From: Phoronis australis
Taxonomy: Eukaryota; Animalia; Phoronida
Assembly (NCBI GenBank): GCA_002633005.1
Contig: NMRA01000024.1
Coordinates: 1,269,903-1,333,902 of the forward strand
Direction of reading: 5' to 3'
Length of the DNA: 64,000 nucleotides
Below the pieces are notes generated by a model that saw only the letters and a program-made list of their open reading frames with translations, was not told the DNA's origin and searched no databases. Of this stretch, positions 7,601 to 58,027 are shown one piece after another (within the stretch, counting starts at the first letter, position 1; every line of letters begins with the position of its first letter). The translations under genes were made by a program, and so were the position numbers.

Positions 7601-7859
7601 AACTAAGCAGTGTCGTCCACCAGGGTGTGCTCAATAATTTCTTAGTTTTCAGGGACAGGAATGGAAATACTGATGGAAATATTTCCGTCGTTGATTACAG
7701 CACCGGAAAATAGAGATGGAAACAGTATGGTTAGGTGGCTGTCACCCGAAGCTTGAGGTAACGACAGTATGAAGTGCTGTAGTTTCAACTGGCCGGGCCG
7801 CCGATGTAGCTGTAGAGGAGATCGTGTCAGTTGATTTGATGTGAGCTAATACCATTTCC

Positions 7860-8470
7860 TTTTGCTCTGCTCTATCTCCACTGGTGTAGGACAGTAGGTT
7901 CTTATGGCCAGTTAGGTGCACGATATTATTTGATGATATTCCTGATTTCATCAGACATTGACATGCAGTTTTCCGCAGGCTGTGATTCGTTTTTGCCCTG
8001 GTAAGTTACTTTGGTGACACATAGTGGACATCATTTTCGAAACGGTATTAACACCAACAGATTGCGCGGCTAACCAAAGACCAGACTTCGTTGTGTTTCA
8101 GTTAGGACGGTTATAAAATGGTGCGTCGTCTGTCATCATTTTCGCATGCTCCTTTCGCTTATATTTTTTGTAGGCTTCAATGGGTCAGTTTTGCGGATCC
8201 TCTGAAGTGGCGAACATTTTGAGATTGAGCGGTCTCAATTGACTTCCATCTTTTCGTGTTTTTGTTGTTCTGTCATTAAACTCCCAGTATTCGCCTGTGT
8301 TTGCAGACGATTTAAGTACGATGTCGTCCTATCTCAACTTTCTGTTTTCATCGCAACCCCCAATGCCGAACGTCTTAGTGTTGTTTAACCAGATTTGATT
8401 TAGGAGTGCACGTGGGTGACCAGGTCCTATGATCCCTTTCTCCTTTAGGATACTTTCCTCCATTTGACTT
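7860..8470 (-). mobile_element. Degenerate Crypton-like tyrosine recombinase fragment (DUF3504; ZMYM/KCTD1/QRICH1-related)
   Basis: Minus-strand translation gives EYWEFNDRTTKTR, MFATSEDPQN, DDAPFY, WLAAQSVGVNTVSKMM and TNHSLRKTACQCLMKSGISSNNIVHLTGHKNLLSY. These include the HxxR and GH...Y catalytic motifs of tyrosine recombinases, with stops and frameshifts. Confidence 0.8.
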
Positions 8471-14044: not shown

Positions 14045-14340
14045 GCTATTCGCCCTAATAAGCGCCCATGCCCCAATAAGTGCCCCAACTCGTTTTCAGC
14101 GCACGGCCCATGAAAATGCCTTACCTACAGTTCTAACGTCTCCAATTTATCAACTGAAAGATCCGACAGTCCTGAATTTGTAGACCACGAGCCTCACCGT
14201 TATGTCCCTACACACTTCAAACTTACGCCGCGATTCAAAAAGAACGCAGAAGTTTTGCTGCTCTTGCGAGGGATGTGGCCCACTATGCGGGTCTGGACTT
14301 TAAAAACAGACACAGCGTACTTGTCAGCGGGATTGCATTG
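14045..14340 (-). pseudogene. HIRAN-domain-like coding remnant adjoining a transposon-like end
   Basis: CNPADKYAVSVFKVQTRIVGHIPRKSSKTSAFFL matches the HIRAN NxxDxxAV...VGHxP pattern. The region ends near ctattcgccctaataagcgcccatgccccaataagtgcccc, which has repeated AATAAG(C/T)GCCC units resembling subterminal repeats. Confidence 0.55.
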
Positions 14341-15439
14341 TTTCTTTCCGGAACAGATCTTCTCCGGTCTCAACAGGAATCCAAACTTCTTTGTACACGT
14401 GAAAACCGTGAATCGAAGACTAATAAAAAACTCGACCAGTGTTAGCACGCGGCCACGAAGTGCGCGCTGCATAATGTACCAGCTGTCATCGAAGACATTT
14501 AGTCGGGAACTATCTATTCATGAAACGGGTAACATAGCATCGGTAAGAAATAAATATTGGCACTAATTTCCAAGTTTCTAATAACGTAAAAAACTTTTGC
14601 ATTATTTTTAAGAGAAATTATTTAACTAATCATAATTGGAATTTTTAAAGTCAAATGACCCACTGATAGTGAATACACCCCAAATCTTCCGGAAAATAGC
14701 TGTTACCCTACGGTCACGCATCCACTCACCCGGCTACTCAATGAGTGACATATCGGTCTTACCGAAAAAATTCTAGAACGTTTTTAGCAGATGAGGCCAG
14801 CAAGTGCTAAGCTAAATATTAAAGCTCTGCTTGACTGCTTGAGTTAATTTCTTTGGATATACAAAGCACACCTAGATCATTACATCGCATTTACTCTGGC
14901 AAATGAACTCTGATGACAAGCACACGCACGCTTACTCTCAAACACACGCATACAAACTTCACAACAAATGTCACGTGACAACATGTGTGTTCCTCCAGAG
15001 ATTTTTCTCGCGTTGCGGGCTACAATCTAGCGCAGATTTGGACTTAATCTGCAGTTAATCCAGACTCCACAAGAACTTAAAAATCTTAGAGACGCTATTT
15101 GGAAAACTTGAGGAGGATTTCAGGAAATTTGTTGAGTCGAAGCTGTATTCTTATTCAAGAATTCAAGCCCTATCGACGATTGCGAGACCCGCAGCTACGC
15201 ATTTGTCGGCAAGATTTCGCCCTGGGATTTCAGCACAACTTTCTGAAAAATGATCGTAATTTAACAACGAATTTTGATAGCAATGCACTACAATTTTGTA
15301 GAAAGTAAATAACAATATTCTGCACGCTTTATCTTAGCGCGTTAATGCATAGTGTGCGTACGTTAAGTGAGTTGACCCAGAACAGGTGATTGTGCAGAGG
15401 CATTATTCTCCGAAATTGCTCATGTTGGCTTGGTTCTGG

Positions 15440-20797: not shown

Positions 20798-22952
20798 TTA
20801 AGGGCCGAGCGCTTGAGTTATTTTACGAGCATGAAAACGAGGCTGATCTCGAACATGGAAGCTGCTGTTACGAATTTCTTTCAGCAAAATTGAAATATGC
20901 ACTGTTTTCAAAGATTCTGTTAAGTCGTAAATGAGCGGCAGTTACGCTGCACGCCGTTTTCCTGCTCAGCTAGGAGCTAGGATATGTTATAAGTAAGGAC
21001 TGCGTGAGTGTTTTTGAAGCATCTTGTAAATCCTGAGGATCTGGAGCTGAGAAAACGCAGATTTGTTTGACCGCGATATAATTCCAAAGGACCGATAGAT
21101 TCGTCCGACAATTTAAAATTGGCTTGCATTAATCGCTACTTTGATGGGTTTTCAGTGGCGGACTAAGAGGGGGCCAAGGGGGCCATGTGCCCCCTAAAAT
21201 TCTCCCAGATTCCAGTTGGCAGTTTGGGGTGAGAATGTCTGACGGGCAAAATCCTGGCTAATAGTCTGCCCTGTCCCCCCAACTCAAAATCCTGCATCCA
21301 CTCCTGCTTTTTGCGTCATATTTGTATGTTGCAAGCAAGTACCACAGACAGCGATCCTGTGGTCATAGCAGGATACGTTGTGCAGGCAGTTGAAAACCAG
21401 GACGGTTGCCCGAAAGTCGTTTGAGCTGACCATGGAACTGAAAATGGACATGTTAGGGGTTTCCAAACGTTTTTGATGGAGAGCTTGTCTATTTAGTTGT
21501 AGCTGTTCCCCAAAATAATATCTTGGCGGGAAGTGGTGCACTTTAAATGAATCAGTGACTTTACAGGTATTATTTCTCAGGTAAAGAGGACTTAAAACTG
21601 GCGTCCATCTTACATTTCAATGACTGCATAGTAATAGTTGTCCTTAATACACTGCAATCTCAACCCTGACAAGGCGTTACGATTATTTATATCTGACGGA
21701 GTCGACTGACCGTGGACAGAACCCACAGGTCGTGAAATAGATAATCAAAATGCCAGAACAAAACGATTGCAAACGAGCTTCATACCTGCTATCATTTTTA
21801 CACAACTCATCGTGGTAGGCATCATGTAGGACTTGTTATCTCTGATGATGTATTTTCCACCAAACGTGTTGAGAAAATGAATTTAACCTTTTGTAAATTT
21901 TTAAGTGTTGGGTGCATTTTGTCTTTGATTTGGCTCTCAGACTTTGACGTCTTGAAACCTCATGTAGCACTGTACCACCACTATTTCGGTTCAGTGTTTA
22001 AGTGAAACTACATTTTAGTGTTTCTAGGTGTCCACAAAATGTACTCACACTTAACGCAACGCCAGTAGTTTCCATTCAGTTAACAATTTCACATTTGGTC
22101 CTTCTGGTGATTCCTTCTGGATACACCAATGCAAATATCCTTGTTCCGTATTTAATAAAAAATGCATTTGTTACCGTTTGAAATCAATACATTTTGGGGC
22201 ACCTTGAATATGATAACACTGTGAACCGCCCAGAGTTCTTAATTTATTCCAGCTGAAAGTTTTAAGGGTTAGTCTAATTTACAAAACTGTTATCATAAAG
22301 ACTACAGCTTTCTTTATTTTTGTTTAGAAATTTGTCAAAAAACTGAAATGACTTTGATATGTTGTTGGCTAGACGGGGGAAACTACCACAATCGTCCAAC
22401 GCGGTCTGAGCGCTAATGCTCGGATAAACATCCAGTTCCATTGTCTTGAAAATTTTAATCACGTGCTCGGCTGGTCTACGCAATATTTTTGCCATCAGTG
22501 CTTGAACATCAAGGATTTGTTTTGACATGAACTCATTCAGTTTGTGCTGAAGTCACTGAGTAGGCCCCAGTCAGTGTTGGAAATGACGAGCAAATCAGTT
22601 CTAAGACATAGTTCTAGCTTGAAGTATGCTACTTTGACTTGACCAAATTAGCGCTACTCGGGACTTTAAAATGTGTCTGTCTAAAGTTTGCAACCCGAAG
22701 ATTCGAAATATTTAACAAAACGTCTGCCGCACAATTTCTATAGACTGTAAACTATCGAGTTATAAGTCGGGCGCTGGAGTACGGAAATAATGAATTAGCG
22801 TGTCCTTTCCCAGCCACCATACAAACGTACAACGCACTTGTTTGTTACTGGGTATTCAATAGTCGACAGCATCCTAAATCTAGCATTTGTGACGAGTGGT
22901 CTCTTTCGAAAACTTCACATTTGAGCAAGTGAGATACCTGTCGCTCGGAAAG

Positions 22953-25900
22953 ATGCTTTTCCTCGTGGGGTGTAAGTTGCCTTTAAGTATGAGATTACAT
23001 GCTCAAACTAATTGACCTTCCAGTTTATAAAAAAAGCATTCTTCAAAAAGAAATTATGAGTACAGATTAGGCTAATTAGCAAAAACATTCATCGGACACG
23101 GGTTTGTAAGAAATAAGGATTCGAGTGGTAAATATTATTCATGTATTAAAATGTATTCGAATTATGGGCGACATAACTTGGTGGGATTTTTATTTTCTGT
23201 TGGGGAGAAAACGGAGTAGGTGAAGTAATTCCTTTTAAAAGGAACAGCGCATATTTTCTGAGAACGCAGCTCAATAAAAAGTGAACGAAGCGTTCTGAAA
23301 TTAAAGACTGGCCGTTTTTCAACAAAAATATAGCAAACGGATATCCAAACCTACTGTTTGAAGGTTTGAACTGCTCCAAATTCGTTCAATAGCTCCAACA
23401 TCGTTTTTCTTTTAAAAAGTGAAATCGCTTTGGCCGTTTTAGGGGTGGTCGTCATCTTAAACGTGCTTAGCTTGTCCTACTGTGCAAAGAGAGAGTTGTT
23501 CGACCACGACGTGGCATTTTTGGAAAAACCTATAACGCATTCGTTAACAAGCCAACTTCGACTGCATGAAAGAGGAGTCGGTCCAGGAGACCTCAGAATT
23601 CATGGAACATACACGCTACCCTCAGGAATTACCAAGGTAACGTTATTGGAGACACTCCATCTTGTCAACTTGTCGTTTTATCTCAGTGTGAATCGGCAAG
23701 TAATTGAATTTCTCACTAACGTTTCGTATACCCTGCAGTTGTATTGAAATTCCTTGCTTGCGATATGAAATTATATTTCTATGTCATCGCGGGTTCAAAG
23801 GAGTTCCTTTGCTCGCACTCATTTTTGCAATCACGTCTTCCTCTAGTTCTTGGTTTCTTTATTTTGTCTCTCCATCTTTTGATCGTTAACATACAACTAT
23901 GAACTACCGCTACTAAATCACAAATCGACATTAGAAAGACATCAAGAAAAAATGAGAAAAGATTTCTTGAACCCCTACCCCCTAAAGTATTTAAATGGTG
24001 GATGAATTGAAATTAATCTTATCTGGTTTTTAGCAGTCTTGTTCTGGTTAGGGTATTTAAACCACAAGCATACCAAACTTCAAAAATCATATTGCTATGT
24101 TAAGGCAAATCTTTATGCGTGGGCTTCTACAGAATGAACTTTTGGCACCCAACATCTCGCCCAGGTATAACTCGATAAAGTGACAAAAAACGAGGCTCTT
24201 GAAGAGCGTACGTTTTGTTCCAGTCAAAGACACGTAATATAGGAATGTGGTGCGTCAAAAAATCATTTTTTCGTTTGGATACGATACACATAACTGAACT
24301 TACCGGTTACAGTCGATAGTCTTTTACTTACTCTACAGACAAAAGTGGTAAAAATTTCAACATGAAGAAGCACTACAAGGGTACAACAGCACCACCTGTT
24401 GAAAACAAATTGAGTTTGATCTCAACAACCACTGAGGAGAGTTTAATTAGATAGTATTTATTTCATCGAAGTGACTTTGCGCCCAGAAAAAAAAAGAAAA
24501 GGTGGTGAAGCTCTTTCGGAGACTTCTTTGAAAGCCCGCAGCACCTCTTTGCATTCATTGTTTAGGCCAAAATATGTAATTGTTTATTCGTGGCGCCGTA
24601 TCGTGCCACACAATGTGAGTGTCTCTTCAGTGAGTATTTTTGAGTCACGCGTCCACAGTTTTAAGCTCTTCTTGTACATTACTTTGAAGGTGATAAACCC
24701 TTTCTTTAAAGTTGAAATTGGCCCAGACCTTCAAAGGTGTGTCGGTATTCGGAGCGTTCATTGTGGGCGAACATAAGAATGGGAAGCACGGAGGACGAGT
24801 GTCAGGCCATGTTATCAAAGGGATTCACCAGGATCTTAAAGGTAGGATTTCATACGCCACCTGGTGTTGATATGCCACATGTACATTGAATCTGGAAGTA
24901 ATAGTTCTTGGTTGAATGTAGTCATCTAATTTCGAAGACTTCTTCTAATTTACAAATAAAATCTGTTTGGAAACTGTTAAGTTGGCAAGCCCACTGACAT
25001 TGTCAAAAGTGTGACGGGGAAAATAGTAACTGTATGTTAACTGTTATGCTTATTTAGTTGCTATTGTTCACTTATTATCATGATTAATGTCTTTGTTGCG
25101 TCTCAGTGCGCTGTATAGCCTTTTTTCCTTGGGCCATGCGGACGTAACTGTGTCGGGCACTTCGCTGGTGACAGACTTTGGAGAAGAGTGTGTATCCTTC
25201 TTTGACATAAATTTTAAGGAATTGAGCGTGTGTAATGTGCAAAAGAACTGAACTTGTGTTAAGCTGAAATACACATTTTGGTGCTCTCTGGAGATTTGAT
25301 GTGTTACAAAGGCAACGACGATTGAAAGGCCGCGTCTAGTAGTGAAATCGCAACATGTTTTTTTAAAAATAAACCAAATTACTGGAAATTAACTGTTTTG
25401 GTGTTTCTCAAATGTTGAACCACAACTATCTTCACATTTCTAATGCCGAACATTAAGAACGACCAGCGTTGTAGCTACTTGTTTGTGTTTGATTTCAGGG
25501 AACATTAGCCCAAAACTCTCGGCAAAAGAGGCGATCAGCGCATGTCTTCAAACGCTTCACGGAAAGAAACATGTTGCTCACGAAAATGCAGATTTTATCG
25601 TATACGCAGGTAAATATGTCAGGTTATGTTTGTGATCGGATTTTTCCGGACCATTTGTGAGAAATTGGAGACCTATAAAAATGGCATTTCTTTCTAACTC
25701 GTGCTCCTGCCATTTCAACCTCGTTCTCAAAACATGACGACAATTTTTGTCTAACTTAAGCTTCTAATCTGGAAAGAGTTGAGGACTTTGCGAACAATCT
25801 CGTACCTCGAATAACGGATACCTCCAATATGTCAACCAAATTCTTAATTACAGCCAATCAGGACTCGGGAAACGTAAACGGTACACTTGTTCTTCATCAC

Positions 25901-28656
25901 CTGCTCGTTTGGTAACAGTTTTTTGCAAAGTACCCACATTGCCTCTCGTATTACACTCCGTCGCTATCCAACAAGTTCGCGTGTGTCTCCCTTTTTGAAT
26001 ACTTCTCACTCCTCACGGTACCCTCAAACAACAGCTGTTTAATGTTCCGTTTGCACTGCAAGGAGTGTTCACACGTCATTAAATGCTTTTGACAAGTCTA
26101 TAAATATTTCGTGTACTTCTAATTTAAATCATTGATTCTATACCAATGATTAAAGAAACTCAAATAGTCGAATTAGAAAATGCCTTAAAATCACTGATTG
26201 AGTGGGGGATGACGATGACGGACACTACGACGTCAAGGTCTCTCCGCTTAACCATCTGCGGATGGTGAGAGAAATCGAGTCTGAGGGAAGAATTTTGAAC
26301 CTGCGTTTCGCAGAGCCCACCTGACTAGTCAGGGCATTTTGAAGTGTGGGTTTCTTTCCAAGGGCCATCTTTTTGCAGATGTAAGGGCTGCTGTTATCCC
26401 GGGAAGCGTTTCATATTGCAAAAGCCTCGCGAAAACCCAGAATCACGGAAGACTTCGAGAGACGCCCAGCACTGCAAGCCGCAAGCACGTAACCAGTCTA
26501 GTTTAAGATTCTTTCATCTATGGAACACAGCCCCACTCTCCGCAGCTTCGAGTTAGTTCTGTTGCTACTCTGGTTTAAAAAATCGGAAAATTTGGGCAAG
26601 ATTTTTAGACAGTCTTGGCCAAGAAGATTTTTGAAAAATCCACGTAAGATTTCAAATTTTTTCCAAACTTTTAGAGAACCTTGGCAAGATTGATGGAAAA
26701 TTTTGACATGATTTCAAAATTATCAGCAATATTTTTGAAATTATTGGCATCATTTAATTCTTGGCGAATTTTATCGTGGTCTTGATGGGGGATACTGTCT
26801 TGGTCTTTTGCCGTTTTGGCATTCACTTACACTAACCCTACCAATCCCAGTAAAATTCTTACCCGTCATACAGAGGAGTTACGAAATACTGATTAGCTTG
26901 TGTTGTTTCCAATTTCCCTAGGATTCAGTTATGAGCACAATGTGACCGCGACTTTGGCTTACTACGTCACGATGAGCGTGGAAAGCAGTTCCGGAGTCGT
27001 TGAGCCGTCGTGCTTGGTTGACGCCATGACAGGGGGTATAATAAAGAAATGGGATGCGATAGCCTCAGCGGTTCAGAACGTTAACAGTGTAGGAGGGAAT
27101 GGACATGTAAGTTTATTGTCATCGAATGTGTATTGAGGGACGTCGTTGTGTGAGCATTTTATTTTCTGCACTCTTAAAGTTGCGTAAGACCATAGAAAAA
27201 TGTCTAAATTTGACTAACTTCGGAACTTCATATCCAACTTCCACATACTATGCTATGTTAACACTAAAGTTCTACAGCGTTACTATTATAAAGGTATACA
27301 GATTTATTTTAGTTTTGAAGATATTTGGCTACATGCACAGAGTTGTCGATACGGTCCCGCGGCTACATGCTCTTTTAAGAGCATGTTAGAACATGTTGCA
27401 TCTCTAAGTTCCTAGGTCTAGAGACCATCGACTGTCAATTTGCTATGTTGAATTTTTCATAGTATACAATAAAACGACGAGCGTCAGTACTTAACTATAT
27501 TAAAATATTCCTCCCTTTTAGAGCGGTACGCTCTTTATCGGGGCCATGACACGACCATGCCTTTGACAAAGAACGTACAGCTCGAATAGTGAGAAATAGT
27601 TGTGGTACCGACGATCATCGTTCTACTGTATACTATTTTGTTCTTTTTAACCGTCGGCAACTGCACTGCATTAAAACGTCTATTTTATTTATTTTCATTT
27701 TTCAGACTGGCCAATATTTGTATGCGCCAGGTGGCAGTGTTCCCGCCAATCCCAATTTCCCTCCGTTGCAGGCACAAATGAAAGACGCGACAACGTGCGA
27801 ACTTGTGACTGGTTTTGTTGAGGTCTATAACCTCAAAACTGGGGTTTTTCCGAGAAGTGTAAAGGAACCTTGGTCCTTCCCATGTTCTTCCGGATTCCGT
27901 GATCAAAGAAACGGTGCCTTCTCGCCTCTAAGTGACACGTTTTTCTACTCACACGCCATCTATCATCTGTACATGAAGCATTTGGGGGTTCCCCCACTTC
28001 CTCTCCCTACAAAATTGAAGCTGTATGCCCACTACGGCTCATTTGGAACGATGACGGCACATTACAATAACATAGAAAAGCGTGTTATCCTTGGAACGGG
28101 GAACAGCAAAGTATACTACCCGTTTGCCACGGTGGGCATCATCGCGCACGAACTCGGACATGCATTCACGTACAGTTACTCGAAAATCGTTAAAAAGGAC
28201 GAAGGTTACGGCCTCCACGAGGGATTCTCCGATATTTCAGCTGCCATGGTAAAATACGAGCTTAAACGACAGCGCAGTTTCTTGTTTGGAGAGGAAATCC
28301 AAAAGGATCCGAACAAATTTGAAAGAGACATGTGTAATCCTACCCGTGACAAGAAGTCCATCGATAACTACGGGTCATACGTAAAAAACATGGACGGACA
28401 TCAAAGCTGCGGTATCATCAACAAGGCTTTCTGCATTTTGGTCACCCATTACAGGTGGGACATGAGAACTGCTTTCAAAGTGTTCGCCATCGCCAACATG
28501 AAGTACTGGACGGAGACAACCGGCTTCAACCATGCCGTGTGTGGCATTGAACAAGCGGCGAGGGACCTGCGAATGTCTGACAGCGATGTCAGGGGTGCCT
28601 TCGCAGTAGTTGGTTGTTCGTGCCCAACAAGCGGACAATTCTGTTTACTGATGTAG
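22953..28656 (+). CDS. Secreted M4-family (thermolysin/elastase LasB/vibriolysin-like) zinc metalloprotease pre-pro-enzyme, 6 exons, ~529 aa
   Basis: Exons 22953-22971, 23443-23636, 24712-24841, 25499-25609, 26922-27106 and 27706-28656 are all GT-AG with phases 1,0,1,1,0 and total 1590 nt. Signal peptide MLFLVGWVVVILNVLSLSYCA; FTP-like LPSGITKLKLAQTFKGVSVFG; PepSY-like LAYYV...LVDAMTGGIIKKWD; catalytic domain GGN.HTGQY, NGAFSPLSD, AHELGH, GLHEGFSD, ERDM, DGHQSCGIINKAF, YWT..TGFNHAVCG, AFAVVGCSCP. Exon 1 is the least certain part of the model. Confidence 0.9.
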
Positions 28657-31394
28657 ACAGTTTTAAAGGAAACAAAGCTTTGCAATCTGTTATTAGGCAA
28701 TGAATTCAAAACAATCGTCACAGTACTTGATCCTCCTGAAGTTTTCAAAACGTAAATATTACTTTATCCCGCTTTAAGAAGTTTTCAGAGCGTAAATATA
28801 TTGTACAACAAAGAAGTGAAAGGTGTGCGTGCGTGCATTTGCGCGTGGGCTTTTGCATTTTTGGGTGTAAGTTTCGCGGAGACGGGCTAAAAAGGTCTAG
28901 AGGCTTCGTGACAAGTGGCCGTGTAGCGGGACGTACAAGCACGTATACACATACTATCCGTTCCATTTTTGACAGGGCGTATAAGTACCAAAAGTTAGGA
29001 GTCGTCGTGGAGCGTAGACGCAGTGCCGGCATCGCCGTTTTGATCTTGACAAGGTTGACAAAAGTTGACAAAGCAGTATCACTGGACATTTTGAAATCAC
29101 TGTAAGCACTGTGAAAGGGATTTCATTTGTAAGGCTTACTTACTTCCCAAAGTCTAGGAACATTAAACGCTTCTTATGAACAATTTTATGGCGGGAGTGA
29201 TTCGTAAAACCTAGAACTAGTGTCAAGCTATTTCTGGAGGACAAGAGAGGATTGCAAACCCACCACAGCTCTGCATTTCTGAAAATGTTCGACTCATTCG
29301 TATCGAACACGTCAGTCCAGCCCTTAATTTCGTTCCCGAATCATCTAGAGAGGTTGTTGCTTCAACGTGCTTCAGTCGCCTCTTTTTCTCAGATACACTC
29401 AGGAGATGAACCCATACTTTTTCACGTGGTCTTTGACTCCACTATGACGCTGCTTTCGTCGGCCATTTCACACACGGCGTCTACGTAACAGTGACACAGC
29501 TGAAGAGTAGGCCGCCTTCAGGATTCAGTTTCGGCACTTGGCGTGACAGCCTTTGTGAGGCGATTTGTAATAAAATCTCGTGAACAACATGTTTTGTTGC
29601 GCGGTTTAGCTCTAGTCAAACTATCACAAAATAACTTTCAAATTGCGTTTTTTCTTCGGCTGTAAATCAATCGCGAAAACTCGAAAATTTCTTATGGCGA
29701 ATCTACTTCTCAGACATGCTAATGCTTAAGAGTCACGTGATAAGAATTATCTTGCGCAATTGAACGTTTTCAGTATATTCCAGCATTCCAGAAATTCCGT
29801 ACATTGAGTACATGGCAAAGAAGAAGAAATACTAAGACCAGCCTTACACCCGAAGCAATGGTCTTACATCTGTTGCACATTAAAAGGTCGCCAGAAAATG
29901 TATTACTATAACCAATAAGCCATTGAATTACATCCGGTTTTTGTCAATTCGTACTTCGCGATTATTCAACATACATGATCACTAGGTGGAAAAAATGAAG
30001 TTTAACAGAAATGTAGATTATTACATGGCGAAATCGTTATCCCCGTATTCTTTTGAGAGCCCGAGTGGACTTTAGAATTCTCGCCCGAGCCGAGACAGAG
30101 CGCGCCGCCGGGGCCAGCTGTAGTCGCACTCTGATCCGCCAAACAGAAAAATATTTCGTGATGTCCTGTAACGTTGCTCTGGACGTACCACCCAATCCGC
30201 CCGACCATGCGACAACGATAGACTAACAAGATAAATAATGCAACTCTTGCTACCATTTAATGTGTATTGTGGCTGACCGCCAAAATCCCAGAACTCCCTG
30301 CGTGACCAGGGGAGATAACACTCATAACAGCCCTGCGTGACCATGGGAGATAACCCTCATAACTTTCCTGTCCATCATCGGCGTTCCTGTCCTGCTATGG
30401 GACGAAAGGAGCATTGGCCTATTTTCGGTGCATCGGAGGTCCGTCTGCCAGAAAAGTAGCCTTGGTACAAAATTGGCAATAGTCTTTAACAGCTAGCTGG
30501 CTGGCTACCAGAATTTCAGAAAAGGTGCGTTGTTCAATCCTGGTTCGATTATATACCCCTTGTTTATGGTGCGTTTAAAACGTGTAGTCTGCTGCTAGTT
30601 GTGCCAGTTTGTACAGCTGTACGGAGTAGCAAAGCCGAATGCGAGTCGATAACCTGACGGAGCCGAACTCAGCTTTGGGTAATGCAAGTGATGGGTCGAA
30701 GGGGTTGTGGGTCGAGGGCTTGTGGGTCCAGGGGTGTGGGGGGTCGAGGGGTTTTAGAACAATCCAAAACAATCTGATGAACGTCACTTTGTTGCATAAT
30801 TCTCCGCTTTTTATAAAAAAGAAAAATCTATCGTAGTTTTGAAAACAGTAGGCAGGTGACACGCCCTCGCACCATTTGCTAATTTTTTGTCGGACATCTC
30901 TCACGAGATCGTCGCTTGTTCTGAAATTCGGTTTGCTGGTATTAAAACGCTAGAACCTTGGAACGAGATGAAACCAATTTCCATAATTTGTTGTGACGTG
31001 TACGCAACCTCGTGGAAGAAAAACAGTCGATTGAAGAAGTAATTAACCAATAGGTTACGTTGATGTGGTTGAATTTGGAATCGTGCTTAATTAAAGATGG
31101 CGTATGGAATTGAATATTCATTAAGGATATCAGGTGAATTTTTTGTTCAGTGCAAAGAATGTTTGTAATTATTGGCCTGACTCACGATCTCCCATTTTCT
31201 CCTTTACTGTAACATGTGTCACAGAATCGGAATGGTTAAATCATTTATTGTTTGCTGAACAAGATCGTCAATAATTGAACACCGGTTGGTTAAAATTTAC
31301 ATTACTTTATTAACATATAATTTGATTTAGGGCAATGCAATTTTTAATCAAAGTGCACGTGATTATTTGAGTGAACTGTCAAGTTTCCGCTCGT

Positions 31395-34295: not shown

Positions 34296-34878
34296 AGCTA
34301 TTTCCGAGGTGTGATATCAATATAGTCATTTTCGAAGTTTGATATCAATATAGTTATTTCCCACAAGTGCGACATCACTAATTATTTTCAAGGAGTGCAA
34401 CATCACTATAGGTACTTCCGCCGAGTGTCATATCAATATAGTTATTTCCAACAAGTGTTATATCAATATAGTTATTTCGGCTGAGTGTGATGTCAATATA
34501 GTTATTTCTGCTGAGTGCAATATCACTATAGTTATTTCCAACATGTGTGACATCAATATAGTTATTTCCGCCGAGTGTGATGTCACTATAGTTATTTCTT
34601 CTGAGTGCGATATCACTATATTATTAGTTATTTCCAACAAGTGGGATATCACTATAGTTGTTTTCTCTGAGTGGATATCACTATAGTTACTTCCATTGAG
34701 TGTGATGTCACTATAGTTATTTCCAACAAGTGTGATATCAATACAGTTACTTCCGCTGAGTGCGATGTCAATATAGTTATTTCCCACCAGTGTTACATAA
34801 ATATAGTTACCTCTGCTGAGTGTAACATCAGTATATAGTTCTTTCCACGAGTATGGTATCAATATAGTTTATTTCCAC
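34296..34878. repeat. ~30 bp minisatellite (~19 units)
   Basis: Consensus approximately gtgtgatatca(a/c)tatagttatttcc(gctga/aacaa); it produces the spurious repetitive ORF 34458-34862. Confidence 0.92.
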
Positions 34879-53600: not shown

Positions 53601-56600
53601 AACATTCTTCCTAAGCCTTTAGCGGTTGGAATGTCCCAATTTGGTGAAATCATTGATCAAATGGTAAAACCTGCAATTATCTGCTGCAGAAAACAAGTGA
53701 CATAGTATAGGGCTACACAATCTCAACAACATCAAGAGACAAACGCACTTACCGGGCTTGGCATTTGATCAGGGTCAAGTCTCCTAGGAGGTACCTGAGG
53801 TTGACTCATTGGACCCCTGTTTCCCATCGAAGCACCCTGTGGGGCCCCAAATGGCTGGCCTCCAGGACTAGGAGGCGGAGCTCCAAAATGAGACATAGGT
53901 GGCGCACCATACTGAGATGTGGGTGGTCCTGCCTGCATTGGCGGCGCTCCTCCGAATTGTCCTTGTGGTGGAGGAGGAGCGTTCATTTGTGAAGTGGGCG
54001 GTCCGGAACCACTAAATGGTAATGCGGGTTGCGGTGCACCAAACTGGGAGGGAGGTGGGGCCCCCTGTTGTGGATGGGGCGGTCCGCCATACTGTGAAGT
54101 AGGAGGTGCTATGCCATACTGGGATGAAGGTGGTCTACCATACTGTGAAGTGGGTGGACCTGGAGGCTGAGATGGCGGACCACCTAACTGTCCAGAAGGT
54201 TGTGGTGCACCGCCGCTATAGTTAGACATGGGAGAGCCTCCGTACTGTGACGTGACTGGTCCTCCAAACTGTGATGACTGCGGTCCTCCAAACTGTGAAG
54301 TGGGCGGGCCTCCCAACTGGGGCGGAGGCCCCACTGGTCCACCTAGCCTGTTGGCTGGAGGTCCCATTGGTCCACCAGGCCTGCTAGGAGGCCCCATTGG
54401 TCCACTTGGCCTGCTGGATGGGGGACCTTGATGTGACATACCAGGTGGGCCACCAACTGGAGGGGGACCAGATAGACTCATTGCTCCCACTTGGCCAGAT
54501 AACTGAAATAACAATTATTGGAAAGATCAATTAGAAAATCGTCAACCTAAAACTTTCAGAATCGACTCATATTAGACCAAATTTCAAATTCTGGTGGTCA
54601 AGCTGGTTAGAACTGACAAAGATAACATACAATTTCTTTAATTCACAGACATATTGTCTAGTGATGTTGGATGAGTATCCCACCAGACAACAGTGCTGAT
54701 GACGGCTGGTGATAACAAAGAACAAGAACAACGCAGAGTGTTGATATGCACCCACTATGTGCATCATTGAATCCATATGAAAAGGGAAAGGTGTCGTTGT
54801 CTCCTTAACTATCTTTTTCAGTAAAGTGATTTATTGATAATAAATCAAAGAAGTTGGCATTGACATTTGGACAACAATTTGCTAAATTTCATGAAAATCC
54901 GTCACAGAATTTCAAAGATACAAAGGCAAATGCAAAAAACTAAGACTGCCACTCGAGGGCACAGTGGTAGTCGGATCCATCTGAGAATTCGCTTGCGCTG
55001 TCCCACCCAAGATTACGAGCACGTCTTCAAAATTTCTCTAACATCCATCAAGAGGATCCGGGAGATACAGCAGTGGATGCTGAACGAACAGCAATCACAG
55101 CATAATGCACCTACATATATAAATGTGGCCGAACAAAAATGTTGTGAAATTTCACTACTAATCTTTGTCCAAGTTGCATGCAATTTTTAGTTGTCGACTC
55201 ACTTTCGCACACATAATACTCCATCAACCAACACAGCGACTTTCAACAAGTTGTCGATTTATCGTAAAACGGTTATCTTCGGCTATCTTGTGGCAATGAA
55301 TATGGAGCGACAACACCTCAAACTAGAGAAAATTTTCAGATCATTCTCCTCGTCATAAGCACAAAAAAATTACATTGACACACTGCAATTGCTTAACTCA
55401 GGTCAACGGGTGCATAAAATTACGCTGTAATCCTGTCTTATTTTTGCTTCAATAACACAGTAACATGTTGGCTTCGGTGCTGTGATAAAAGTGACCACGT
55501 AACAGAATNNNNNNNNNNNNNNNNNNNNNNNNNNNNNNNNNNNNNNNNNNNNNNNNNNNNNNNNNNNNNNNNNNNNNNNNNNNNNNNNNNNNNNNNNNNN
55601 NNNNNNNNNNNNNNNNNNNNNNNNNNNNNNACCATACTGTGAAGTGGGTGGACCTGGAGGCTGAGATGGCGGACCACCTAACTGTCCAGAAGGTTGTGGT
55701 GCACCGCCGCTATAGTTAGACATGGGAGAGCCTCCGTACTGTGACGTGACTGGTCCTCCAAACTGTGATGACTGCGGTCCTCCAAACTGTGAAGTGGGCG
55801 GGCCTCCCAACTGGGGCGGAGGCCCCACTGGTCCACCTAGCCTGTTGGCTGGAGGTCCCATTGGTCCACCAGGCCTGCTAGGAGGCCCCATTGGTCCACT
55901 TGGCCTGCTGGATGGGGGACCTTGATGTGACATACCAGGTGGGCCACCAACTGGAGGGGGACCAGATAGACTCATCGCTCCCATTTGGCCAGATAACTGA
56001 AATAACAATTATTGGAAGGATCAATTAGAAAATTGTCAACCTAAAACTTTCAGAATCGACTCATATTAGACCAAATTTCAAATTCTGGTAGCCAAGTTGG
56101 TTAGAACTAACAAAGATAACATACAATTTCTTTAATTCACAGACATATTGTCTAGTGATGTTGGATGAGTATCCCACCAGACAACAATGCTGATGACGGC
56201 TGGTGATAACAAAGAACAAGAACAACGCAGAGTGTTGATATGCACCCACTATGTACATCATTGAATCCATATGAAAAGGGAAAGGTGTCGTTGTCTCCTT
56301 AACTATCTTTTTCAGTACAGTGATTGATTGATAATAAATCAAAGAAGTTGGCATTGACATTTGGACAACAATTTGCTAAATTTCATGAAAATCCGTCACA
56401 GAATTTCAAAGATACAAAGGCAAATGTAAAAAACTAAGACTGCCACTCGAGGGCACAGTGGTAGTCGGATCCATCTGAGAATTCGCTTGTGCTATCCCAC
56501 CCAAGATTACGAGCACGTCTTCAAAATTTCTCTAACATCCATCAAGAGGATCTGAGAGATACAGCAGTGGATGCTGAACGAACAGCAATCACAGCATAAT

Positions 56601-58027
56601 GCACCTACATATATAAATGTGGCCGAACAAAAATGTTGTGAAACTTCACTGCTAATCTCCGTCCAAGTTGCATGCAATTTTTAGTTGTCGACTCACTTTC
56701 GCACAAATAATACTCCATCAACCAACACAGCGCCTTTCAACAAGTTGTCGATTTATCGGAAAACGGTTATATTCGGCTATCTTGTGGCAATGAATATAGA
56801 GCGACAACACCTCAAACTAGAGAAAATTTTCAGATCATTCTCCTCGTCATAAGCACAAAAAAAATTACATTGACACACTGCAATTGATTAACTCAGGTCA
56901 ACGGGTGCATAAAATTACGTTGTAATCCTGTCTTATTTTTGCTTCAATAACACAGTAACATGTTGGCTTCGGTGCTGTGATAAAAGTGACCACGTAACAG
57001 AATGATGTCCTATGCCTAAGTTGGGGCATTTTGTTTCAGTTTTTGTCTGATTTAAGTAAAAACATAATTTTAACAAGAAAAACTATGCATTTCTTAAAAG
57101 GTCACAACCTCCAACCCCAGGCCTCTGACATAGAAAGTAGTTACAAAAGCCGAGGCCAGTGGAGGAAGGTAGATCGATTCATTGCAATGTTTATCGTTCA
57201 ATATGGGGTATAAATAGATGATTACATGTTCTCAGTTGTTATCCCCCTTATTTCATGGGCGGGGCACCATAGGGGGCTGGGGGGCTATAGCCCCCACTTT
57301 TTTCAGTGCTACGCCGCACATGGTCTATAAGCGGTGCACCACAGGGGGGCTGAGAGGGCTATACCCACTCCCTTTTTTCAGTGCTGCACCACCCATGTAT
57401 TTAGAGCCCTCGTGGATTTTGTACAATTATAACCCAAGGGGCATAATTCTTCAAAATCCACGAGGGCTCTAGATTATGGGGAATAACGACTTCGCCATGT
57501 AATAATCTATGCGTAATTTGCCAAGCTTGGACATTTTTAGGGTACTACATAACAGGGTGTCTAACATCTCATATTGAATGAGGTAAATTTAGTACAAAAA
57601 AGTTTGCCAAACCTTTTTAGTGCACTGAACTCACCTGATTTGGACTAGGTGCTAGATCACCATGGGGACCAGTCTGCACTCCATTCTGCATTGGAGGCCC
57701 GGGCTTCGCTACTGCACCCGCGCCATTGTACATCATCTGACCCGGAAGATTTGGTGGACCCGCTTGTCCATGGGGTCGATTCGGAGGCGCGCCCATCGAC
57801 CGAGGAGGGCCCATTGCAGGCCCTGGCGGGAACTGGCCACCGGGTACCATTGGCCGCTGGCCCATTGGGGGACCAGGTGGACCCTGGCCAGGTGGTGGGC
57901 CCATGTTTGGGGCACTGAACGTTTGGCCAGGAGGTCTCTGTCCCATGGGCATCCCAGGCTGTTTCCCAGGAGGCCCTCCATACATCTGAGGTGGCCCTTG
58001 ATTGTAACTACCGTACGGCGGATTCAT
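35663..58027 (-). CDS. SEC24C: Protein transport protein Sec24C/D (COPII coat cargo adaptor), 19 coding exons, ~1146 aa
   Basis: Exons (minus): 58027-57635, 54502-53753, 53346-53238, 52242-52115, 50346-50208, 49185-49070, 48032-47905, 47317-47239, 46143-46031, 45135-44925, 44104-43934, 43507-43411, 42965-42681, 41816-41622, 40566-40463, 39404-39317, 38528-38425, 36974-36885, 35803-35663. All are GT-AG and phase-consistent, totalling 3441 nt. Pro/Gly-rich N-terminus, [17 protein letters not shown], zinc finger [58 protein letters not shown] (the LIL cargo motif of the C/D subfamily) and [14 protein letters not shown]. Confidence 0.96.
37331..38147. mobile_element. PIF/Harbinger-type MITE in a Sec24 intron
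   Basis: TIRs gggctgttccagtaaaatccgtgtgggaggggggg and cccccccTcccatacagattttgctggaacagccc, flanked by the 3-bp direct repeat TCA on both sides. Confidence 0.85.
43810..43930. repeat. ~22-25 bp tandem repeat (5 units) abutting a Sec24 splice donor
   Basis: ccatgagacggccac(c/t)atttca-like units run up to the donor at 43933. Confidence 0.85.
46261..46645. mobile_element. Foldback/MITE-like element in a Sec24 intron
   Basis: Nested inverted arms gactcaaaatcga / tcgattttgagtc, attctgcttttt / aaaagtagaat and aatttgcacttgatgac / gtcatcaagtgcaaaatt. Confidence 0.7.
48606..48833. mobile_element. MITE-like element; related ends occur at ~5650, ~8860, ~31700, ~47160 and ~49650
   Basis: ctggagcccattccaagaaa at the left end and tttcttgggactggcccctg at the right end form an imperfect inverted repeat. 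Confidence 0.55.
51792..51932. repeat. 19-bp perfect inverted repeat followed by a 20-bp tandem triplication
   Basis: ttcattattgtttgagacc ... ggtctcaaacaataatgaa, then caataatgaacagata(gg/tg)a three times. Confidence 0.75.
55631..57003 (-). repeat. Near-identical direct duplicate of 54137-55508 (includes part of Sec24 coding exon 2) across a 122-N gap
   Basis: The offset is 1494 bp. Copy 1 ends exactly at the gap start and copy 2 starts exactly at the gap end. There are scattered substitutions only. Confidence 0.93.
57253..57397 (+). repeat. Short interspersed GC-rich repeat; second copy at ~63738-63880
   Basis: catgggcgg.gcaccatagggggctgg...ggggctatagccccca and ctttttcagtg(c/t)tgca occur in both copies. 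Confidence 0.7.
57402..57471. repeat. Perfect 20-bp inverted repeat with 30-nt spacer
   Basis: tagagccctcgtggattttg (57402-57421) and caaaatccacgagggctcta (57452-57471). Confidence 0.9.

Follow-up and report, generated by a model that had tools for sequence, protein, structure and literature searches.

How a secreted protease of a family known, according to the available part of PMC7851659, almost exclusively from bacteria comes to stand in an animal genome, and what it does there, is the question raised by a locus of the phoronid Phoronis australis. The window, meaning the whole stretch of 64,000 nucleotides that was analyzed (contig NMRA01000024.1, positions 1,269,903 to 1,333,902 of the forward strand), contains at 22953-28656 a gene that a sequence-only reading had interpreted as an M4 pre-pro-protease of the bacterial elastase/vibriolysin type, acquired by horizontal transfer and split by five introns. 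The locus is a fully domesticated, well-expressed M4 gene in an animal. New is the observation of a second version of the gene, in which changes are clustered at the substrate-binding strand while the zinc core is conserved.

Gene Structure and Transcription

The six exons join into 1590 nt, which encode 529 amino acids and a stop codon, with zero internal stops. The features of the transcript are as follows.

22901..22952, + strand: 5' untranslated region, with a likely transcription start near 22901-22913
22953..22971, + strand: exon 1, aa 1-6, beginning of the hydrophobic signal-peptide-like N terminus (RNA junctions, reading frame)
23443..23636, + strand: exon 2, aa 7-71, end of the signal peptide and start of the propeptide (junction reads, bacterial precursor profile)
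24712..24841, + strand: exon 3, aa 72-114, part of the propeptide with a motif resembling FTP (Pfam match at E 0.006, short of the cut-off; junctions)
25499..25609, + strand: exon 4, aa 115-151, propeptide, region at the PepSY position by collinearity only (junctions)
26922..27106, + strand: exon 5, aa 152-213, end of the propeptide and putative maturation site near aa 201-204 (from alignment to bacterial precursors)
27706..28656, + strand: exon 6, aa 214-529, M4 catalytic domain without a C-terminal accessory domain (Pfam, PDB, model)
28657..29000, + strand: 3' untranslated region, extending at least to 29000 (low depth, 4-11)

All five introns are of the GT-AG type, with phases 1, 0, 1, 1, and 0 and lengths of 471, 1075, 657, 1312, and 599 nt. 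Splicing was followed in three stranded RNA-seq runs carrying the same species label (X6, X7, and X8), about 18-19% of each run being examined. Junction reads confirmed five of five introns in each of the three runs, all on the sense strand. The six phase-consistent exons and the uninterrupted frame of about 529 residues read from the DNA were thus borne out exactly, and spliced transcripts do exist. For intron 1, the exact window junction was present in 5, 7, and 18 reads (X6, X7, and X8, respectively), and 76, 50, and 67 further reads joined a variant exon-1 end to the same acceptor, giving totals of 81, 57, and 85. The corresponding counts were 90, 93, and 81 for intron 2; 54, 54, and 39 for intron 3; 40, 32, and 41 for intron 4; and 27, 30, and 58 for intron 5. 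RNA depth was close to zero across most intron bins, and the same exon joints were found in an older contig set. Read ends from the three RNA runs piled up at 22901, 22907, and 22913. Expression amounted to ~39-47 reads per kb per million, with all versions of the gene pooled. We regard it as practically certain that the M4 locus is a real host gene. A candidate additional exon at 26202-26324 was ruled out; the reads join exon 4 straight to exon 5.

Protein Family, Domains, and Fold

By motif and fold, the predicted protein is a member of family M4, a LasB/vibriolysin-type pre-pro-protease with noncanonical subsites. Exon 6 scored above the Pfam cut-offs for both Peptidase_M4_C (E 1.5e-20; 74.2 versus 24.4 bits) and Peptidase_M4 (E 1.2e-6; 29.5 versus 22.4 bits). 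The remainder of the proposed layout of signal peptide, FTP, PepSY, and catalytic domain was supported in part. The putative signal peptide was assigned by hydropathy, which is 2.1-3.1 in the ten N-terminal windows of 9 residues. Homology to bacterial propeptides is clear for aa 36-192 of the spliced pro-region, which scored 63.7 bits against a profile of 103 bacterial pre-pro-M4 proteins, compared with at most 5.2 bits in 200 shuffles. The FTP match on exon 3 stayed below its cut-off (16.9 versus 21 bits), the motif being interrupted by intron 2, and PepSY gave no Pfam match when the exons were scanned singly. All NCBIfam equivalogs were far under their cut-offs. Atlas searches brought up nothing but M4 clusters, whose taxa played no part in the analysis.

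The assignment to the LasB/vibriolysin type rather than to thermolysin held. The closest PDB entries were LasB (E 2e-50) and vibriolysin (8e-46), whereas thermolysin reached only 1e-10, and in the trees of 55 catalytic domains and 38 precursors described below, the subgroup was separated from the Gram-positive outgroup with support of 100/99 and 100/100. An AlphaFold model built from 100 alignment rows had a predicted local distance difference test (pLDDT) score of 86. Its template modeling (TM) score was 0.82 to vibriolysin MCP-02 versus 0.73 to thermolysin, and the top 26 Foldseek matches were all M4 proteins. A second fold from a 4-row alignment was weaker (pLDDT 67) and was set aside. Cysteines had been expected at the positions of both LasB disulfides, and the pairs C244/C273 and C492/C519 indeed align with both bacterial pairs. 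The chain ends 10 residues past C519, and its predicted isoelectric point is 8.8.

Relatives and Phylogenetic Position

An exhaustive search of 1.84 billion representatives returned 1587 matches, and among the 150 listed none exceeded 43% identity. Names were looked up for 30 listed matches, and five clusters proved to be named animals (Ylistrum, Ostrea, Pinctada, Octopus, and Lingula). A profile search added M4 proteins of Pecten, Mizuhopecten, Argopecten, Saccostrea, Argonauta, and Mytilus. Animal M4 genes are filed in the databases under automatic names, e.g. "elastase-like." No close relatives were found among 392 candidates from a word-based search with exon 6, nor among 18 and 28 from pattern scans of bacterial genomes and metagenomes. 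Profile scans yielded only relatives of 29-37% identity among the matches listed, with no named eukaryote in the top 120 of one such listing. A profile made from the molluscs plus the window protein returned molluscs, then bacteria, with no named cnidarian in the best 120 of 465. The collections searched were mostly microbial and represented by their best rows, and close animal orthologues may still exist.

Maximum-likelihood trees were calculated with FastTree (186 domains) and IQ-TREE (55 hand-picked catalytic domains and 38 hand-picked precursors). In all three free trees, the protein was placed inside the vibriolysin-type radiation and apart from the molluscs, whose M4 proteins formed a clade of their own (100/100). 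In the catalytic-domain tree (55 rows), it belonged to a group of seven with bacterial-type proteins (97/92). In the precursor tree (38 rows), it was sister to protein P0122 (98/87) in a group of nine with Rhodanobacter, Luteibacter, and Enterobacter (96/96). Its neighbors over the trees were P0122, P0123, P0152, and Enterobacter M4 proteins, to which the precursor tree added Rhodanobacter and Luteibacter. This nesting among bacterial M4 proteins agrees with the horizontal origin proposed by the sequence-only reading, and on these sequence comparisons a bacterial source of the gene is very probable. The proposal of a gammaproteobacterium-like donor needs a qualification in detail. The bacterial nesting stood, but the nearest proteins are the bacterial-type ones and those of Rhodanobacter, Luteibacter, and Enterobacter, not those of Pseudomonas or Vibrio.

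Several points weigh against this placement. P0122, P0123, and P0152 are counted as bacterial from their architecture only. The branch of the Phoronis protein is long (1.98-2.24 changes per site) and joined to other long branches. One clade with the mollusc M4 proteins was not rejected in approximately unbiased (AU) tests (p 0.069 and 0.337). Finally, an extra cysteine pair, C423 and C456, which is without counterpart in most vibriolysins, occurs in Rhodanobacter-like bacteria, Enterobacter, and molluscs and is non-discriminating because molluscs and the nearest bacteria alike possess it.

These results leave a tentative place for a single ancient acquisition shared with the mollusc M4 proteins and followed by many losses, the bacterial placement then being an effect of long-branch attraction. 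The AU values are compatible with such a history, and the molluscs share with the Phoronis protein not only the extra cysteine pair but also a non-Trp aromatic residue at the Trp115 site and, in several rows, the absence of the upper-rim Asn. The three free trees, however, set the gene apart. Among 421 collected proteins ranked by BLAST score, the best named animal was 29th and the named molluscs were spread from 29th to 418th. In addition, the molluscs carry a C-terminal domain of ~110 aa that is absent here, and most of them lack C519. With moderate confidence we favor a capture separate from the mollusc acquisition. A single clade of the Phoronis gene, the molluscs, Lingula, and an ShK-bearing M4 protein was rejected (p-AU 0.0003), a result for which the ShK protein, itself placed firmly among Vibrio sequences, is probably in large part responsible. 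Membership of a wider animal M4 family, considered earlier, was therefore confirmed only insofar as M4 proteins do occur in other marine invertebrates; one family for all of them is contradicted, with the grouping with molluscs alone unrejected.

Some of these relatives deserve description in their own right. The mollusc-wide clade of vibriolysin-type M4 proteins (P0131, P0161, P0235, P0277, and P0307-P0320) comprises scallops, oysters, a mussel, a pearl oyster, Octopus, and Argonauta. P0169 is an M4 protein with FTP, PepSY, and C-terminal ShK domains that falls among Vibrio vibriolysins (100/99). It may have entered a eukaryote through a transfer of its own at a later date, with ShK as the only sign of an animal origin. 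P0258 from Lingula anatina, an M4 domain fused to a C-type lectin domain, falls outside the mollusc clade. P0146, P0202, and P0226 are Enterobacter-type M4 proteins with divergent active-site rims that branch near the window protein, and P0202 and P0226 have Ig-like (Big_2/invasin-like) tails.

Kept and Lost Active Site Residues

The following positions of the active site were assigned in exon 6.

28033..28077, + strand: upper-rim (substrate-binding) strand region, aa 323-337 (equivalence by alignment), highly variable among host versions
28147..28161, + strand: HEXXH motif, H361, E362, and H365 (sequence, alignment)
28192..28194, + strand: K376, aligned with the transition-state Tyr that all 99 bacterial rows have
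28219..28221, + strand: third zinc ligand, E385 (alignment)
28324..28326, + strand: R420, equivalent of thermolysin Arg203 (alignment)
28399..28401, + strand: H445, equivalent of thermolysin His231 (alignment)

The residues H, E, H, E, D, R, and H are invariant across a 100-row alignment (A2), and the equivalents of the catalytic helpers Arg203, His231, Asp226, and Asp170 are all kept (R420, H445, D443, and D389). Available sections of PMC7851659 and PMC9002140 give the Tyr a transition-state role, and those of PMC9002140 describe the upper-rim strand as binding substrates in the manner of an antiparallel beta-ribbon.

The claim that the transferred gene had been kept intact is too simple, for alterations have affected the calcium site and the equivalent of Tyr157 as well as the upper-rim strand. 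Four acids of the calcium site, presumably the LasB calcium ligands, are replaced by G357, A393, K396, and S404, compared with D, E, E, and D in at least 92 of the 99 bacterial rows. Some changes weigh against a working enzyme. The equivalents of Tyr157, Asn112, and Trp115 are lost (K376, T330, and Y333, compared with Y, N, and W in 99/99 bacterial rows), and the majority type of the RNA described below has a Lys at the upper-rim Asn site. There are 106 positions at which at least 90% of the 99 close bacterial rows agree, and the Phoronis protein differs at 55 of them, including the three just named. Substitutions at the Asn, Trp, and Tyr equivalents cripple thermolysin, and the Phoronis enzyme may accordingly be weak or dead. 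The same three positions vary too in some bacterial and mollusc M4 proteins.

Variation between Versions of the Gene

Most RNA reads depart from the window by several percent. In DNA run X1, which may derive from the sample used for the assembly, the interval 27960-28143 was recovered as two contigs, one identical to the window (depth 10.9) and one with 21 differences in 184 positions (depth 7.4). Run X8 contained three exon-1 types with intermediate allele shares. The presence of a second version in both DNA and RNA points to a second locus, with pooled samples or very divergent alleles as alternatives; by tblastn no second M4 copy lies within the 64-kb window. The majority RNA version diverges from the window at 28634, and its last residues and 3' untranslated region differ.

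The window and the majority RNA type were compared over 101 codons, with an overall ratio of nonsynonymous to synonymous change per site (pN/pS) of 0.46. In the zinc core, one nonsynonymous and four synonymous differences gave a pN/pS of 0.08, and in the upper-rim region (aa 323-337) eight nonsynonymous differences and one synonymous difference gave 2.6. Fisher tests yielded p 0.0003 for the clustering of nonsynonymous differences and p 0.036 for nonsynonymous versus synonymous change. Run X5 supplied a third version with yet other differences at the upper-rim strand, and pN exceeded pS there in three pairwise comparisons, which are non-independent. For the whole gene, the best-supported 40 of 159 rows (38 of them coding) contained 16 silent and 17 nonsilent codons, and 11 of the 17 lie within aa 315-348. 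The strand is conserved in 99 bacterial rows, with a mean share of the top residue of 0.88-0.92.

The weight of these figures is reduced by the way they were obtained. The variable region was picked post hoc, and with two or three versions and nine changes, the p values are optimistic and relaxed constraint is possible. The window type is moreover the minority transcript, with about 8% of the reads in X6 and 20-25% in X8. Positive selection on the upper-rim strand is thus a lead, not a demonstration.

Proposed Function and Alternatives

We lean toward the following reading. The gene would have been acquired long ago from a gammaproteobacterium and would encode a predicted secreted, self-maturing zinc endopeptidase whose substrate strand varies between copies, likely selected to cut changing foreign proteins at the body surface or in the gut. 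The signal peptide would route the precursor through the endoplasmic reticulum, and the FTP/PepSY-type propeptide would aid folding and inhibit the enzyme until cleaved near aa 201-204. With zinc bound to H361, H365, and E385 and with E362 as general base, R420 and H445 would assist in cleaving bonds that precede a hydrophobic residue. A third disulfide (C423-C456) perhaps makes up for the lost calcium site, and the mature enzyme would be a basic zinc endopeptidase without a calcium site and with an altered cleft. The enzyme is probably catalytically active. The strong constraint on the zinc core implies that catalysis or zinc binding still matters, and a variable rim suggests changing targets, which favors digestion of, or defense against, foreign proteins over remodeling of the host matrix. 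The sequence-only reading had named digestion, defense, mucus or venom, and matrix remodeling as possible roles. Whether the target is a microbial or prey protein, and not the host's own matrix, we nevertheless rate as an even question.

The protein could instead be an active protease on the host's own matrix or mucus, serving remodeling, larval settlement, or the skeleton, with the variable strand reflecting relaxed constraint after duplication. We consider this unlikely, if not strongly so. Its secreted architecture would suit such a role, near-neutral drift is plausible at a strand that binds the substrate backbone, and the accessible text of PMC4784904, in its treatment of a sponge's bacterial-type M35 genes, brings up matrix remodeling as a role of metallopeptidases in animals. 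The pattern of variation argues otherwise, for the strand is conserved in bacteria but varies in the host, pN being the larger value in the three non-independent comparisons.

The main mechanistic rival is a catalytically weak or dead M4 fold used as a secreted binding protein or decoy, be it an inhibitor sponge or a binder of microbial proteins, with the variable strand as its binding surface. Two observations fit such a protein: the equivalents of Asn112, Trp115, and Tyr157 are missing along with four acids of the calcium site, and amino acid changes gather at the cleft. On the other hand, every zinc ligand is still present, as are the general base, R420, H445, and D389; the zinc core is under strong purifying selection (pN/pS 0.08); and bacterial relatives in the same branch (P0152 and P0146) are also without Tyr or Asn. 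We judge this rival improbable.

Contamination or a chimeric assembly, involving bacterial DNA or the gene of a eukaryotic symbiont, is extremely improbable: the best matches are bacterial and no contig built from the DNA runs spans the whole M4-Sec24 interval, but the gene has five spliced GT-AG introns with a GC content of 38%, like the window as a whole, runs without a gap up to Sec24, is matched in 79-93% of its words by four DNA runs from a single study, which may have used the sample that was assembled, and has transcripts in two other studies filed under that species.

Genomic Setting

The gene had been described as lying between animal genes, and homology matches agree with this. An SLC52 transporter gene (E 2e-40) lies upstream and an intron-rich Sec24C/D-like gene downstream, and 19903-55509 contains no N gap, so that the M4 gene and Sec24 share the same ungapped contig. 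Because the neighboring genes are animal, so is the host. The observed/expected ratio of CpG is 0.99 across the M4 gene (22953-28656) versus 0.50-0.65 across Sec24 (36001-60000). This contrast would fit an unmethylated regulated gene next to a methylated housekeeping gene (compare the available part of PMC4378018). One further element was located inside the M4 gene.

27459..27636, intron 5: degenerate inverted repeat resembling a miniature inverted-repeat transposable element (self-blastn, 67% over 187 columns)

The flanks hold 79 other open reading frames, which gave just two Pfam matches, both below cut-off. Weak matches of this kind at 7745-8005 (tyrosine recombinase) and 14203-14517 (HIRAN) are possibly relics of transposons or genes. 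An integrase fragment lies at about 2 kb, and decayed pieces of a long terminal repeat retrotransposon occupy 149-2334, with an integrase core match of E 8e-9. Between M4 and Sec24, a degenerate tandem array with a period of ~60 bases was found at 34296-34877. A 1373-base block is repeated with 97.9% identity at 54137-55508 and 55631-57003, flanking an N gap inside the Sec24 gene, and is likely a haplotype duplication made by the assembler.

Significance and Comparison with Known Systems

In the literature searched (subscription journals and supplements outside its scope, searches partly oriented toward cnidarians), neither a paper on animal M4 genes nor a description of the mollusc M4 clade was found. 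Table 1 of PMC4878875, in the part available, has 41 anthozoan genes acquired by horizontal gene transfer, none named M4, although some rows are unnamed proteins. The available portions of PMC3750612 and PMC13608440 do not name M4, vibriolysin, or thermolysin, and in that of PMC3681718 vibriolysin appears only in a reference. M4 genes are nonetheless present across molluscs and in Lingula and are not united with the rest in a single clade. It is conceivable, though we hold it doubtful, that marine animals captured a vibriolysin-type protease several times (in the Phoronis lineage, the molluscs, Lingula, and the ShK form) and that duplication with diversifying selection on the substrate strand turned it into a weapon or a digestive enzyme with which the host runs an arms race against microbial proteins. 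If such repeated capture and retuning were true, vibriolysins would clearly exemplify how a secreted enzyme of the virulence type can pass convergently from bacteria to animals. For reads annotated as "virulence metalloprotease" or "elastase" in invertebrate transcriptomes, a Vibrio source is not to be assumed.

Compared with LasB (pseudolysin) and vibriolysin MCP-02 (PDB entries 1ezm and 3nqx), the Phoronis protein has the same layout of signal peptide, propeptide, and catalytic domain, the HEXXH motif plus Glu, the Arg and His helpers, and two cysteine pairs, with TM scores of 0.81-0.83. LasB, like the Phoronis protein, presumably has no C-terminal PPC domain. Unlike these enzymes, it is encoded by a nuclear gene with five spliceosomal introns, is only 33-35% identical to them, and exists in multiple divergent host versions. 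It also has substitutions at the Tyr157 equivalent, at the calcium acids, and at both the Asn and the Trp of the upper rim, and it possesses the extra cysteine pair.

The mollusc M4 proteins, annotated as "elastase-like" or "virulence metalloprotease-like" (Ylistrum XP_060074769, Ostrea XP_048756120, Octopus XP_014767445, and those of Pinctada, Mytilus, Pecten, and Argonauta), are likewise animal-encoded vibriolysin-type pre-pro-M4 proteins with the extra cysteine pair and a divergent upper-rim strand. They share only 26-30% identity with the Phoronis protein and, in contrast to it, keep the Tyr, most of the calcium acids, and a C-terminal domain; the Phoronis gene lies outside their clade in the free trees, albeit non-significantly. 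The Lingula M4 with its C-type lectin domain (XP_013417113) and the M4 plus ShK protein P0169 are also of the vibriolysin type, but these two are joined to eukaryote-type domains, take other positions in the trees, and have near-bacterial active sites. A more distant parallel is provided by the M35 metallopeptidases of the sponge Amphimedon as presented in the main text of PMC4784904, where a marine animal has likewise domesticated a bacterial-type secreted enzyme whose genes have introns and have been duplicated. The Amphimedon set differs in belonging to family M35 and numbering 76 genes, and that main text, in the part available, contains no M4 term.

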